From the sequence record MZ234024.1: DNA of 39,375 nt; one strand, 5' to 3'. Made by a program: the position numbers and the translations under genes. Below, piece after piece: positions 6,708 to 14,751 of this stretch; the stretch's first letter is position 1; the number at the start of each line of letters is the position of its first letter. Origin of the DNA: Escherichia phage vB_EcoP-101136BS1. Under the pieces are notes generated by a model. That model made no database searches. It worked only from the letters and a program-made list of their open reading frames with translations, and had not been told where the DNA came from.

Positions 6708-8467
6708 GTAAAGACTTAGTGGCGCGTCAGGCGCTAATGACTGCACGTATGAAGTCAGACTTCGTGTTCTTCCTGTTCGTCCTGTGGAAAGCTCTGTCGC
6801 TCCCAGTCCCTACTCGCTGTCAGATTGACATGGCGAAGAAACTATCGGCTGGGGACAACAGGCGCTTCATCCTACAAGCGTTCCGTGGTATAGGGAAGTC
6901 CTTCATTACGTGTGCCTTCGTTGTCTGGAAGCTATGGAACAACCCAGACTTGAAGTTCATGATTGTGTCGGCCTCAAAGGAACGAGCCGATGCTAACTCC
7001 ATCTTCATCAAGCGAATCATCGACCTCATGCCTCAGCTTCAGGAACTCAAACCTAAGCAGGGTCAGCGAGATGCGGTTATCAGCTTCGACGTTGGACCGG
7101 CTAAGCCAGACCACTCACCTTCGGTTAAGTCCGTTGGTATCACTGGTCAGTTGACTGGTAGTCGTGCTGACATCCTGATTGCCGATGACGTGGAGGTTCC
7201 GAACAACTCAGCGACTCAGGCTGCACGAGACCGTCTATCAGAGCTTGTGAAAGAGTTCGACGCTATCCTGAAGCCGGGAGGTACGATCATCTATCTGGGT
7301 ACTCCTCAGAACGAGATGACACTGTATCGTGAGCTGGAAGGTCGTGGGTACACCACTACTATCTGGCCCGCTCGTTATCCACGCGACAGGAAGGACTGGC
7401 AGTCTTACGGTGACCGTCTGGCACCGATGCTTCAGGCAGAGCTTGAAGAGGACCCTGAGTCCTTCTACTGGCGTCCGACTGATGAAGTACGCTTCGATGA
7501 TACGGACCTGAAGGAGCGTGAGCTGTCCTACGGTAAAGCTGGCTTCGCTCTACAGTTCATGCTTAACCCGAACCTGAGTGATGCTGAGAAGTATCCTCTT
7601 AAGCTCCGTGACCTTATCGTAGCCGACTTGGACCCAGCGTCCAGCCCAATGGTCTACCAATGGTTGCCAAACCCTCAGAACAAGCGTGAGGACGTTCCTA
7701 ACGTGGGACTCATGGGTGACTCGTACCACACGTATCAGACTGTAGGTTCTGCCTTCAGCTCATACACCCAGAAGATTCTGGTCATTGACCCTAGTGGTCG
7801 TGGTAAGGATGAAACTGGTTATGCGGTACTGTATCAGCTCAACGGCTACATCTTCGCTATGGAAGTAGGTGGTATGCGTGGTGGCTATGAAGACTCTACT
7901 CTGGAAGCACTGGCTAAGATTGGTCGTAAGTGGAAGGTCAACGAATACGTCATTGAGGGTAACTTCGGTGATGGTATGTACCTTGAGCTATTCAAGCCTG
8001 TAGCGGCCCGTATCCATCCTGCTGCTGTAACCGAAGTGAAGAGTAAGGGTCAGAAAGAACTCCGCATCTGTGACGTTCTTGAGCCTATCATGGGGTCTCA
8101 CCGACTTATCGTCAACGCTGCTGCTATCGTCCAAGACTATCAGACAGCCTCTGACAAGGATGGTGTTCGTAACCCTATCTACTCTCTCTTCTACCAGATG
8201 ACACGTATCTCTCGTGAACGTGGAGCCTTGGCACACGATGACCGACTTGATGCGCTAGCTATAGGTGTACAGTTCTTCGTTGAGTCTATGGCTAAGGATG
8301 CCAACAAGGGAGAACGTGAAGTCACTGAGGAGTGGCTGGAGGAACAGATGGAGAACCCACGGAAAGGCTTCGAGTCCATCCACACTGAGTTCTGGGACAA
8401 TGGGGTCCGGGTAACTCACAATACGGACGACGAGCTTGGACTAGGGTCATACGTTACGTTCCACTAG
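6704..8467 (+). CDS. gp19: terminase large subunit (gp19)
   Basis: 587 aa (T7 gp19 is 586); extensive identity including [69 protein letters not shown]. Confidence 0.95.
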
Positions 8468-9936: not shown

Positions 9937-10182
9937 ATGAAACACTTAAGCACAATCACTAATCGCAATGAAGTATTCGTGAACACTAAAGGTTATGCGT
10001 GGATTCAGCTTAAAGAGATGACAGGAGCGCGTCACCGTGTGGTAGTGCGCAAGGTATCAAGCAAGCAGTTCAGCAACTACAGCGTCGATACTGTGCGTAT
10101 AGACAACGAGACATACCTGATAGACTCGCAGATAACCGTGAGTCCTACAGTGGGCGTCTCAGCTCCTTATTTCGCTAACTGA
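9937..10182 (+). CDS. hypothetical early protein, 81 aa (first cistron after the host promoters)
   Basis: ORF-track frame 9928..10182; the second ATG at 9937 has better RBS spacing (AAAGGA, 8 nt). No similarity recognised. Confidence 0.55.
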   Translation: MKHLSTITNRNEVFVNTKGYAWIQLKEMTGARHRVVVRKVSSKQFSNYSVDTVRIDNETYLIDSQITVSPTVGVSAPYFAN

Positions 10183-10184
10183 GA

Positions 10185-10240
10185 GTGATTAACTACAGGT
10201 CGTTAGACTGATAGCGGCCTGACTGATAGTCACTAACACA
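10185..10240 (+). repeat. repeated structured element, copy 2; candidate RNase III site
   Basis: TTAACTACAGG can pair with CCTG(ACUGA)UAGU as an 8-bp stem with a bulge; core GGCCTGACTGATAGTCACTAAC. Confidence 0.5.
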
Positions 10241-10265
10241 TAATTAACTTTGAGAGGATATAACT

Positions 10266-10772
10266 ATGGAACGTAATGCTAACGCATACTATGAGCTGCT
10301 GGCTGCAACCGTTGAGGCATTTATCGAGCGTATTCAGTACGACCACCTGACTCAAGATGACGACTACAGCGATGCGCTGCATGAGGTCGTAGACGGTCAG
10401 GTTCCTCACTATTACCACGAGATTTTTACGGTGATGGCTGCTGATGGTATAGACAACGAGTTCGAAGACTCTGGGATGATACCTGAAACCAAGGACGTAA
10501 CGCGTATCCTACAAGCTCGCATCTATGAGGCACTTTATAACGACGTGTCTAATAGCTTGGATGTAGTCTGGTTTGAGGATGAAGAGGCAGACGAAGAGGA
10601 TGAATATTGGGTAGTTGACGCTAAAACAGGCGCAATAATTGTGCAAGCTGTAGCTCTTGAGGTCGCTACTGCATGTGCCAAGGTTAACTATGCGGCAGGT
10701 CGCCACCTGAAGGTGGAAGACACCAATGATAACGTAGTGTTCGACCCTGCGGCTGAGGACTGCGAGCGATGA
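10266..10772 (+). CDS. ocr: Ocr-like anti-restriction DNA-mimic protein (gene 0.3) with a ~50-aa C-terminal extension
   Basis: [45 protein letters not shown] is near-identical to T7 Ocr as recalled. T7 Ocr is 117 aa; this ORF is 168 aa, continuing past the acidic tail. Confidence 0.85.
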
Positions 10773-10914
10773 TAACTTACGGTTTATGCCAGCACCACGT
10801 CACCAACGCCCGGCTTATGGTCAAGACCGGGCAGTTAGACCACGATTGGGCTATGCGTCTCTTGAAAGTGGTCTACAGGAGACGCAAGCGTATACACGAC
10901 AGTTTACACGCTAA

Positions 10915-10968
10915 GTGACAGACTACAGGTCATCAATGCTGGTGGCCTGACTGATAGTCATTAACAAC
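10915..10968 (+). repeat. repeated structured element, copy 3; candidate RNase III site
   Basis: AGACTACAGG ... GGCCTGACTGATAGTCATTAAC upstream of the 10982 start. Confidence 0.5.
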
Positions 10969-11209: not shown

Positions 11210-11341
11210 CCTAAATAAACAGGAGAGAACCAAATCATAGCTTGACCATAACACTGACGTGATGGTACTGAGTGATAGACGAGAGGTCATCGACTGATAG
11301 GTGGCCTCAAAGATTACCACTTACATTGATAGGAGTTAACT

Positions 11342-11446
11342 ATGAGCACTGCAATCATCTGGACTATCTCAGGCTTCGTAGCGTGGGGAATGTTTACTCT
11401 AGTCTGCAAACTACCGGTCCTTACTCAACTGTTATGGGGCTTATGA
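11342..11446 (+). CDS. possible small hydrophobic peptide, 34 aa
   Basis: AGGAG RBS 6 nt upstream; MSTAIIWTISGFVAWGMFTLVCKLPVLTQLLWGL; stop overlaps the next ATG (ATGA). Too short to score. Confidence 0.3.
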   Translation: MSTAIIWTISGFVAWGMFTLVCKLPVLTQLLWGL

Positions 11447-11646
11447 CTATGAGTATCGCACTATTGATAGCCATAGGCTATGGACTTATCGCCTACGTGC
11501 TGGTGAGAGACATCAACAAAGCGCGTAAAGTCTACAAATTCAACTATGTACGTCTGGGTAGCTGGACTGTACGTCAACCTAACGGACGATTCATGCGTAA
11601 CTTAGCGAACGTCTGGGATATAGCAACACTTGGGAGCAAACTGTAA
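11443..11646 (+). CDS. hypothetical early membrane protein, 67 aa
   Basis: In-frame part of ORF 11272..11646. The 11272 start lies inside a repeated structured element, so the ATG at 11443 is preferred. One predicted transmembrane segment. Confidence 0.45.
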   Translation: MTMSIALLIAIGYGLIAYVLVRDINKARKVYKFNYVRLGSWTVRQPNGRFMRNLANVWDIATLGSKL

Positions 11647-12069: not shown

Positions 12070-14751
12070 ATGAGCGTCATCTCTATTGACAAGCACGACT
12101 TCTCTGATGTGTCGAACGCCATTGAGCCGTTTAACCTACTGGCTGACCACTACGGGCAAGACCTTGCAGTCAAACAGCTTCAGCTTGAGCACGAGGCATA
12201 CACTGAAGGCGAGCGACGTTTCATCAAGAACCTTGAGAGACAGACTGAGCGAGGGGAACTGGCAGACAATCAGGTCGCCAAGCCTTTGATGCAGACTCTA
12301 GTCCCTAAGATTGCGCAAGCCGTCAAGGAGTGGCATGAAGGTCCAGACGGGAAGCTGTCAACCTCTCGTCCGAGCGTAGCGTTCACCATGTTGAGCACTG
12401 AAGAGAAGGCCGTAAAGGTCCGCTCTTTGCGCATCTCCTGCGAGTCTGCTGCGGTTATCATACTGAAGGTCATACTCTCCAAGCTGGTCAAGCCTGAAGG
12501 GATACCGATTACACCGATGGCCTCAGCGATAGGTCGCACACTTGAGGACGAAATCCGCTTCGGTCGCATCCGTGACAAGGAGAAAGAGCACTTCAAGAAG
12601 GCGATAGCTGATAACCTGAATAAGCGGGCCGGGGCGTCCTACAAGAAAGCCTACATGCAAGCGGTCGAGGCATCCATGCTGGAGCAAGGCCAACTGGAAG
12701 ATGCGTGGGGGACTTGGAGTCCGACCGAGGCTGTCCACGTTGGAATCAAGATGCTGGAGATTGTCATCCAGTCCACACAACTGGTCGAGCTTAAGCGTTA
12801 CGGTGCTGGCAATGCAGCGGCTGACGTTGAGATGGTCCACCTGTCAGACTTCTGGGTCAAGAAGATGGCACAACGAGGATTCAGCCTTGCGGGTATAGCT
12901 CCAGTCTACCAGCCTTGCGTCGTTCCACCTAAGCCGTGGACTGGTGTCGTAGGCGGTGGGTACTGGGCCAAAGGACGCAGACCATTACCACTGATTCGCT
13001 TAGGGTCTAAGTCTGCGGTAGCACGCTACGAAGACGTGTATATGCCTGAAGTCTATGACGCTGTGAACATCATTCAGAATACACCTTGGAAAGTGAACAA
13101 GAAGGTTCTGGAAGTGGTGAACATGGTCGAGAAGCTGAACAACACGCCTATTGATGACATCCCTCAGATGGAACCGCTGAAGCCTGAGGACTATGCGGGT
13201 GAGACTGAAGAAGAACTCAAGGCATGGAAGAAGGCTGCTGCTGGTATCTATCGCCGCGAGAAGGCCAGACAGTCACGAAGATTGTCACTGAGCTTTATCG
13301 TCAACCAAGCGAACAAGTTCTCTCAGTTCAAGGCCATCTGGTTCCCGTATAACATGGACTGGCGCGGTCGCGTCTACGCTGTGCCGATGTTCAACCCTCA
13401 GGGTAACGACATGCAAAAGGGTCTTCTGACTCTGGCAGTCGGTAAGCCTATTGGTGCTGATGGTTTCAAATGGCTGAAGGTCCACGGTGCAAACTGCGCG
13501 GGTGTCGATAAAGTCACCTTCGAGGAGCGTATCAAGTGGGTGGAAGATAACCACGACAACATCATGGCTGCTGCCAAGGCACCGATGGATAGCATTGAGT
13601 GGTGGGGCAAGTTAGACTCTCCGTTCTGCTTCCTAGCGTTCTGCTTCGAGTATGCTGGCGCAATGCACCACGGCTTGTCTTACTCCTGCTCGCTGCCGAT
13701 AGCGTTCGATGGGTCCTGCTCTGGGATTCAGCACTTCAGCGCTATGCTTCGCGACCACATCGGTGGACATGCAGTAAACCTGACGCCATCCGGTAAGGTC
13801 CAAGACATCTACCGCATCGTGTCTGACCGCATTGAGGAGGAGCTTAAAGTCCTACTGGTTAACGGTACGGACAACGAGATGGTAACTCACGAGGACAAGA
13901 AAACTGGTGAGATTACCGAGCGTCTCAAGCTGGGGACACGAGAGCTTGCCCGTCAGTGGCTGACCTACGGTATGTCACGAAAGGTCACTAAGCGTTCGGT
14001 CATGACTCTGGCCTACGGGTCGAAAGAGTACGGCTTCGCAGACCAAGTTTACGAGGACATCGTGATGCCAGCGATTGACTCAGGGTCTGGCGCTATGTTC
14101 ACTGAACCAAGCCAAGCATCTCGCTTCATGGCTAAGATGATTTGGGAAGCTGTGAGTGTGACCGTAGTTGCTGCGGTTGACGCGATGAAATGGCTTCAGG
14201 GTGCTGCCAAGCTGCTTGCTGCTGAAGTGAAGGACAAGAAGACTGGAGAAATCCTGAAGCCTTGTCTTCCGGTACACTGGGTCACACCTGATGGTTTCCC
14301 TGTCTGGCAGGAATACCGCAAGAAGGACACCACTCGTCTGAACCTGATGTTCTTAGGGTCATTCAACCTTCAGCCTACCGTCAACAAAGGCACGAAGAAA
14401 GAGCTGGACAAGCACAAGCAGGAGTCAGGCATTAGCCCGAACTTCGTCCACTCACAAGATGGTAGCCACCTGCGGAAGACTGTAGTCCACACTCACCGCA
14501 AGTATGGCGTGATGTCATTCGCAGTGATTCACGATAGCTTCGGGACCATCCCTGCTGACGCTGAGTATCTGTTCCGTGGTGTCCGTGAGACGATGGTCGA
14601 GACATACCGCGATAACGATGTGCTGCTTGACTTCTACGAGCAGTTTGAATACCAGCTTCATGAAAGCCAGCGCGACAAGTTGCCTGAGCTTCCGAAGAAA
14701 GGTAAACTGAATATCGAAGACATCTTGTCTTCAGACTTTGCATTCGCTTAA
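12070..14751 (+). CDS. gp1: single-subunit DNA-directed RNA polymerase (gene 1)
   Basis: 893 aa (T7 RNAP is 883); conserved C-terminus ...HDSFGTIPADA...DFAFA and specificity-loop region TRLNLMFLGSFNLQPT (T7: TRLNLMFLGQFRLQPT). Confidence 0.97.
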   Translation: MSVISIDKHDFSDVSNAIEPFNLLADHYGQDLAVKQLQLEHEAYTEGERRFIKNLERQTERGELADNQVAKPLMQTLVPKIAQAVKEWHEGPDGKLSTSRPSVAFTMLSTEEKAVKVRSLRISCESAAVIILKVILSKLVKPEGIPITPMASAIGRTLEDEIRFGRIRDKEKEHFKKAIADNLNKRAGASYKKAYMQAVEASMLEQGQLEDAWGTWSPTEAVHVGIKMLEIVIQSTQLVELKRYGAGNAAADVEMVHLSDFWVKKMAQRGFSLAGIAPVYQPCVVPPKPWTGVVGGGYWAKGRRPLPLIRLGSKSAVARYEDVYMPEVYDAVNIIQNTPWKVNKKVLEVVNMVEKLNNTPIDDIPQMEPLKPEDYAGETEEELKAWKKAAAGIYRREKARQSRRLSLSFIVNQANKFSQFKAIWFPYNMDWRGRVYAVPMFNPQGNDMQKGLLTLAVGKPIGADGFKWLKVHGANCAGVDKVTFEERIKWVEDNHDNIMAAAKAPMDSIEWWGKLDSPFCFLAFCFEYAGAMHHGLSYSCSLPIAFDGSCSGIQHFSAMLRDHIGGHAVNLTPSGKVQDIYRIVSDRIEEELKVLLVNGTDNEMVTHEDKKTGEITERLKLGTRELARQWLTYGMSRKVTKRSVMTLAYGSKEYGFADQVYEDIVMPAIDSGSGAMFTEPSQASRFMAKMIWEAVSVTVVAAVDAMKWLQGAAKLLAAEVKDKKTGEILKPCLPVHWVTPDGFPVWQEYRKKDTTRLNLMFLGSFNLQPTVNKGTKKELDKHKQESGISPNFVHSQDGSHLRKTVVHTHRKYGVMSFAVIHDSFGTIPADAEYLFRGVRETMVETYRDNDVLLDFYEQFEYQLHESQRDKLPELPKKGKLNIEDILSSDFAFA

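Follow-up and report, generated by a model that had tools for sequence, protein, structure and literature searches.

The gene at positions 10266-10772 (+ strand) of the DNA of Escherichia phage vB_EcoP-101136BS1 (MZ234024.1; the whole stretch of 39,375 nucleotides analysed is hereafter referred to as the window) raises the question of why an ocr gene should code for more than Ocr. Ocr is the textbook DNA-mimic anti-restriction protein, which blocks type I restriction-modification (R-M) and BREX systems and is also known to set off back-up suicide systems such as PARIS, Ronin and EcoR22I. T7 Ocr consists of 117 residues and ends in an acidic run, whereas the protein encoded in the window carries, inserted at this very place, a block of 53 residues including a domain predicted to be folded. 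What this additional domain is, how it has been gained and lost, and what it may contribute to an anti-restriction protein are considered herewith.

Location and organization of the ocr gene

The window represents a complete T7-like phage genome. Its gene order, with the large terminase gene ending at 8467, ocr at 10266 and the RNA polymerase gene starting at 12070, followed by the structural genes, indicates that the genome record is circularly permuted. The ocr gene is the first early gene, located upstream of the phage RNA polymerase gene, and the identical arrangement is found in phage K1F, in which the counterpart of this long-form ocr is annotated as gene 0.3. The nearest record is that of Escherichia phage vB_EcoP-22664BS1 (MZ234009; 99.4% identical; species Kayfunavirus LM33P1), which shows the identical permutation and carries the same 168-aa coding sequence under the label 'protein Ocr'.

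The long-form ocr gene consists of 168 codons plus a TGA stop in an intact single frame with an ATG start, and a direct reading of the sequence pointed to a Shine-Dalgarno sequence, GAGAGGA (10252-10258, +), 7 nt upstream of this ATG. Two stem-loops, each with an internal loop, were identified on the + strand, one upstream of ocr (10180-10238; MFE -23.6 kcal/mol, z -4.8) and the other downstream (10914-10962; MFE -19.3 kcal/mol, z -2.4). Upon alignment the two were found to have ACTACAGGTC...GGCCTGACTGATAGTCAYTAAC in common, and both look like RNase III processing sites of the T7 type, the upstream one lying at what would be the 5' end of ocr mRNA. Sites of this type flanking both ocr and a downstream 49-aa ORF (10769-10918, +) would give a single processed early mRNA for the two. 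The ATG of this ORF and the stop codon of ocr overlap (ATGA), a hint of translational coupling, and the ORF is probably co-translated with ocr. It shares 76% identity with a 51-aa gene of contig L004 that is annotated as PF26807 (T7 gp0.4 family); a direct Pfam scan of the 49-aa ORF gave no match at E <= 0.01. Elsewhere in the early region, a 124-aa ORF with a GTG start (11272-11646, +) showed a sub-threshold match to Pfam Ninjurin (E 0.0028, 18 bits for a cut-off of 26), which probably reflects a hydrophobic or transmembrane segment and not homology.

Ocr module in the N-terminal part

By every sequence-level criterion the protein is Ocr. Residues 8-94 match the Pfam ocr family PF08684 with 100.7 bits (cut-off 25; E 7.3e-29), residues 11-113 align with residues 11-116 of T7 Ocr (PDB 1s7z; E 1.4e-24) including both VPHYY...ILQARIYE and the acidic run, and PHROG 2568, 'ocr-like anti-restriction', was matched with E 7.7e-53. 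The Pfam and PDB matches agree with the preliminary description of this locus, in which the first ~117 residues were regarded as T7 Ocr-like, with a near-identical block and an acidic tail. The Ocr DNA-mimic domain (residues 1-103; 10266-10574, +) carries a net charge of -17, with 22 Asp plus Glu against 5 Lys plus Arg, and a pI of 4.08, while the pI of the whole 168-aa protein, 4.05, equals that of T7 Ocr. T7 Ocr (gp0.3) and the protein encoded here are thus alike in the VPHYY...ILQARIYE block, F54, a pI of about 4, the acidic C-terminal run and the position of the gene as the first early gene.

The conserved F54 pairs with F54 of T7 Ocr and is invariant in the alignment of 119 long forms. 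This dimer-interface residue of Ocr is reported to be needed for dimerisation and full activity, and the F54V change to escape PARIS (PMC9122126). In the AF2 model, the Ocr part is predicted to form helices at residues 2-26, 35-59, 63-67 and 75-95, with a pLDDT of just 51-82.

Reading frame of the extension

After the Ocr part, the reading frame runs on as YWVVDAKTG...DPAAEDCER. This in-frame continuation of ~50 residues had been noticed in the preliminary description, together with three findings that would speak against it, i.e., a sequencing frameshift near 10620, a stop near codon 117, or relatives in which the extension is a separate downstream gene. The continuation proved to be real and conserved: the fused frame was found in at least 120 protein clusters (90% identity), with lengths of 162-179 aa, and in about 80 phage genomes reported independently by many laboratories since 2005. 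By tblastn search with the extension alone, 71 phage records were found to carry it at 64-98% identity, always under a gene annotated as Ocr or gene 0.3, K1F included. There is no sequencing frameshift near 10620, since MZ234009 and the at least 120 clusters show the identical fused frame, and neither the window nor these related clusters have a stop near codon 117. Split ORFs do occur, and were found to be rare 1-nt frameshift derivatives of the fused gene. The proposal that the extension was ancestrally a separate gene was rejected, because the sole separate ORFs (P0001 and P0002) are single-base frameshift derivatives of this kind.

For a set of 14 coding sequences, the variable sites within the extension were distributed over codon positions 1, 2 and 3 as 20, 18 and 33, respectively, and the pooled Nei-Gojobori dN/dS was 0.375 for the extension (codons 114-161) and 0.168 for the Ocr part (codons 1-103). 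This pattern, together with the dN/dS of 0.375, indicates that the extension is translated in the Ocr frame and is under purifying selection weaker than that on Ocr; the extra domain changes faster than the Ocr part. The designation as a C-terminal extension holds in so far as a real extra block is present, but the block precedes the terminal EDCE instead of being appended after the protein end. The terminal tail, AAEDCER (10749-10769, +), includes the EDCE end that is common to the short-form relatives and that T7 Ocr lacks.

Predicted structure of the extra domain and its linker

The Ocr part is connected to the extra domain through an acidic linker (residues 104-113; 10575-10604, +), in which 9 of the 10 residues are acidic and which is predicted to be flexible, the pLDDT of residues 107-109 being below 50 in the full-length AF2 model. 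The length of the linker varies among long forms from 2 to about 26 residues: it is as short as 2 aa in CLB_P1 (L051), includes a tandem duplication of EEEDEKA in Mt1B1_P3 (L050), and carries 16 additional residues, DSGDAYAAFCRENEDE, in P0101.

The core of the extra domain (residues 114-161, YWVVD...VVFDP; 10605-10748, +) is only weakly acidic, with a net charge of about -2, and hence does not extend the DNA-mimic surface. Structure prediction of the extension, proposed as a check in the preliminary description, gave a confident independent fold: for the domain alone (50 residues), AF2 returned a pLDDT of 95.3 and a pTM of 0.78, with the predicted order strand-strand-helix-strand-strand (E2-5, E11-13, H18-30, E35-38 and E44-46). 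In the full-length model, built with 119 aligned sequences (mean pLDDT 72, pTM 0.46), the extension was the best-scoring part (pLDDT 82-87). From the pLDDT below 50 for the linker and the pTM of 0.46 for the whole protein, no fixed packing of the domain on Ocr is predicted. As modelled, the domain forms a globule of its own, tethered through a flexible acidic linker.

Search for relatives of the extra domain

When the domain alone was compared with Pfam, PHROGs, NCBIfam and PADLOC, no significant match was obtained. The matches to HTH_64, PepSY, Kelch, DUF2188 and YciI-like families were all below threshold and inconsistent between members, and were rejected. PepSY (PF03413) was matched by 3 of the 25 members, with the best E of 0.0018 and 19 bits for a cut-off of 24, and just over a 14-residue hairpin, WVVDAxTGxII. 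As to DUF2188 (PF09954) or YegP-like proteins, the domain itself gave no Pfam match, the sole signal (E 0.18) being located on an unrelated replacement tail in phage IMEP24 (see below). An exhaustive profile search through 1.84 billion representative proteins detected no free-standing homologue; two matches in this search, a cadherin-like repeat protein and a TPR protein, were spurious, resulting from reiterated short motifs. Word-index searches with the domain and its alignment returned only the two frameshift split fragments.

Structural comparison using Foldseek gave nothing with E < 0.07 on BFVD, where the nearest entries were uncharacterised phage proteins of 45-93 aa, and nothing with E < 2 on PDB. 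The fold of the ClpS core or of the ribosomal L7/L12 C-terminal domain was rejected after no significant structural or sequence similarity was found; in the case of ClpS, the core is of ~80 residues and its N-degron pocket cannot fit within 48 residues. Homology with the T4 antitoxin Dmd was likewise rejected. ClpS, the L7/L12 C-terminal domain, T4 Dmd and AcrIF9 are 9-23% identical to the domain with no signal at the sequence level, the likeness being one of shape alone. An EF-hand-like reading of the EDxNDN loop was discarded on inspection, because the consensus is broken at position 6. The domain is thus an orphan; its small alpha/beta shape is a common one, also seen in many small phage inhibitors, which is a likeness and not a family assignment.

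Distribution of the long form among T7-like phages

The long form is widespread in Kayfunavirus, including K1F, and is not special to vB_EcoP-101136BS1. The same long architecture, 162-176 aa in length and with a domain of 64-98% identity, was found for K1F gene 0.3 and in LM33_P1, CLB_P1, SH3 and Mt1B1_P3. The gene in the window belongs to this Kayfunavirus 'ocr-like anti-restriction' group, differing only in linker length and T153, and in none of those records is the extra domain annotated.

A second subfamily, with Ocr of 171-174 aa, was identified in Stenotrophomonas phage IME15, in Escherichia phage Ebrios (Teseptimavirus ebrios) and in several phages of Aeromonas (PZL-Ah1, PZL-Ah152). 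As in the protein described here, the Ocr domain is followed by an acidic linker and then by the domain at the same place, but the terminal EDCE is missing and a Cys is located before the domain rather than after it. The domain of this subfamily is ~30% identical to that in the window, with the pattern W..D..G....L..A...A..Y..G...VED....P being kept, and hhalign comparison between the kayfunavirus profile and the IME15 domain gave E 4e-4. The presence of this second subfamily with a domain of ~30% identity indicates that the architecture is older than one genus and that the domain evolves much faster than Ocr.

In contrast, the short Ocr proteins, such as that of phiYIO1-1 (114 aa) and those of the T7-like phages of Klebsiella, Citrobacter and Enterobacter, have an N-terminal domain of 80-90% identity and lack the 53-codon block. 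Another Ocr homologue, SP6 Gp5, has been shown to inhibit Salmonella BREX, so that anti-BREX activity is retained in Ocr homologues of other T7-like phages; the passages in which Gp5 is described as superposing on T7 Ocr make no mention of an extra domain (PMC11341690).

Repeated loss of the extra domain

The long form and the short form of phiYIO1-1 differ by a single clean in-frame block of 53 codons (159 nt, residues 113-165; 10602-10760, +), which is present in long forms and missing from short kayfunavirus forms. The alignment of the two indicated that the block is bounded by direct repeats, GAGGAT (10596-10601) and GAGGAC (10755-10760). The C-termini of short Ocr proteins read ...EEDCE in other kayfunaviruses and ...EEDCDD in the T7-like phages of Klebsiella, Citrobacter and Enterobacter. 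Among nine short kayfunavirus alleles, at least three junction types were recognized, including EAEEDCE, EAEESDEEDCE and one of 11 residues, and each junction of the short alleles lies within a direct repeat of the GA(A/G)GAGGA type, which long forms carry on either side of the block. The occurrence of at least three junction types within direct repeats points to repeated deletion in kayfunaviruses. Within the first 306 nt of the gene, the short alleles are 92.5-95.8% identical to the long ones, as close as they are to each other. Repeat-mediated deletion of the block, taking place several times, would be the simplest history within Kayfunavirus; this history is limited to that genus, and the first event may be an insertion into the ...EEDC[DE] tail.

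Two further routes of loss are frameshifts in homopolymer runs. In Logan contigs L003-L005, one additional G in the GGG run (10609-10611, +) gives a 117-aa Ocr and a 59-aa ORF, and in Logan contigs L006-L007, the lack of one A in the AAAA run (10623-10626, +) cuts Ocr to 123 aa and leaves a 41-aa ORF. On reading of the sequence, the ribosome-binding spacing of these split extension ORFs is poor or absent, and thus they may not be expressed.

Deletion fusions were also found. In P0098 (167 aa; seven contigs, the longest of 38886 bp), the domain breaks off after ...GRHLK and, through a natural in-frame deletion, runs on into the C-terminal half of the next, gp0.4-like protein (RHLKAVYEG...). This deletion was probably mediated by microhomology within the RHLK coding sequence; it destroys the extra domain as well as the small gene downstream, and the phage genome concerned is apparently complete. 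In Escherichia phage vB_EcoP_IMEP24 (MZ648215, L057, 462-1022), a 186-aa 'DNA mimic ocr' begins with Ocr, continues with the first half of the domain and ends with the C-terminal 49 residues of another gene, one that stands by itself in phiHAO1-1, SH3, pO2, Mt1B1_P3 and Cronobacter phage Dev2. A domain swap was considered for IMEP24 Ocr and rejected, the protein being a deletion fusion with the downstream gene. Altogether the domain has been lost by at least five routes, i.e., direct-repeat deletions, two frameshifts and two deletion fusions, and long and short forms are interleaved.

Possible role of the extra domain

The two-module architecture itself is close to certain. For its function, we propose that the gene product is a two-module early anti-defence protein, in which module 2 binds a protein and works jointly with the Ocr to which it is attached; the probability of this reading is estimated to be about 0.45, slightly below even odds. 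Module 1, comprising residues 1-103 and the acidic run, would by its homology to T7 Ocr form a dimer mimicking bent B-form DNA, and this dimer would occupy the site at which type I R-M enzymes and the BREX methyltransferase bind DNA. Module 2 (residues 114-161) would be a small autonomous domain, held on the flexible and variable acidic linker at the far ends of the Ocr dimer. We infer that its binding partner is a host defence component met by Ocr, with which it would make a second contact, and that its role lies in anti-defence: the contact may widen or strengthen the inhibition, or may blunt Ocr-sensing systems such as PARIS, Ronin and EcoR22I. PARIS (PMC9122126) as well as EcoR22I and Ronin (bioRxiv 10.1101/2023.04.06.535777) are known to sense Ocr, which provides a plausible selective reason for such a module. 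The repeated loss and the interleaving of short and long forms fit a dispensable accessory that is conditionally useful.

The best surviving alternative, which we consider somewhat unlikely, would make module 2 a second effector in its own right, directed against an unrelated host factor or defence, fused to Ocr for prompt and equal production and able to work equally as a separate protein. The variation of the linker between 2 and ~26 residues and the lack of predicted docking argue against a precisely positioned shield; an independent effector fits these observations equally, and is kept well alive by them. The tether-dependent role was favoured over an unrelated effector because the domain was never found free-standing, except for the two recent frameshift derivatives, and because the fusion persists in two subfamilies that diverged to ~30% identity. 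The poor or absent ribosome-binding spacing of the split ORFs, which may leave them unexpressed, also speaks against a separate effector, as do the weak and generic fold similarities.

A more specific form of the tether-dependent reading, in which the domain is an Ocr-specific counter-counter-defence module at the tips of the DNA mimic, is unlikely and is offered as speculation. Such a module would stop the firing of PARIS-, Ronin- or EcoR22I-type systems, or would extend the inhibition to a complex that plain Ocr cannot block. If this were true, the repeated loss would reflect hosts sensing the domain itself, and the restriction/anti-restriction arms race would have its third layer within a single protein.

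The frequent loss also fits a nearly neutral passenger, and a dN/dS of 0.38 is only moderate constraint. Module 2 would then be a folded remnant of an old fusion or insertion, contributing little and kept mainly since its loss needs a precise in-frame deletion. Loss by at least five routes in otherwise intact phage genomes, the interleaving of short and long forms and a constraint weaker than that on Ocr are all in line with such a remnant. It is nevertheless improbable, because the dN/dS of 0.375 comes with a surplus of variation at third codon positions, and the fold-defining residues are kept across subfamilies at ~30% identity; moreover, the direct repeats ease in-frame loss, and yet at least 120 clusters keep the domain, which argues for its positive maintenance.

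The C-terminus of T7 Ocr (PDB 1s7z) lies far from the dimer interface. An extra domain attached there would be placed at both far tips of the dimer and, if it were a self-association domain, would link dimers into DNA-like chains or oligomers, thereby changing the enzymes trapped. Small domains with an edge strand often pair, and the lasting fusion to Ocr fits this idea; it is decidedly improbable, however, since the domain was confidently modelled as a monomer and the variable linker length would make such chains irregular.

Finally, an artefact, be it a frameshift arising in sequencing or assembly or the reading through of a separate gene downstream, has practically no probability, and the data already reject it: Ocr and the extension do lie in separate frames in two sets of metagenome contigs, but what distinguishes these split forms from the fused one is a single-base change in a homopolymer run, and at least 120 clusters and ~80 independent phage genomes carry the fused frame.

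Long, short and split alleles as a natural experiment

Long-form sequences have been public since the K1F genome, labelled merely as Ocr, and the extra orphan domain is apparently undescribed; no description of the long form or of the extra domain was found in the searchable literature. A widespread Ocr variant with an orphan domain that is confidently folded in prediction, evolves fast and is repeatedly discarded constitutes a natural experiment. Because alleles of all three kinds, long, short and split, are already available in phage backgrounds that are nearly identical, they are directly comparable, and their comparison could reveal how an anti-defence protein is adjusted by phages to the host systems able to sense it. 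K1F-like phages are in use for phage-therapy work, and the plain 'Ocr' annotation hides the orphan domain in these phages. For specialists the domain should be mildly surprising, and its role easily tested thanks to the natural alleles.

Two single-residue observations were made in the window protein. A cysteine within the last 3-4 residues (EDCE, EDCDD or DCND), corresponding here to Cys166 (10761-10763), is kept in long and short Ocr of several genera and is not present in T7 Ocr. Codon 153 (10722-10724) specifies Thr in the window (VEDTNDN), while Ile (VEDINDN) is found in more than 90% of long-form relatives; residue 153 sits in the most conserved stretch of the domain, and the closest record, 99.4% identical, also has Ile.
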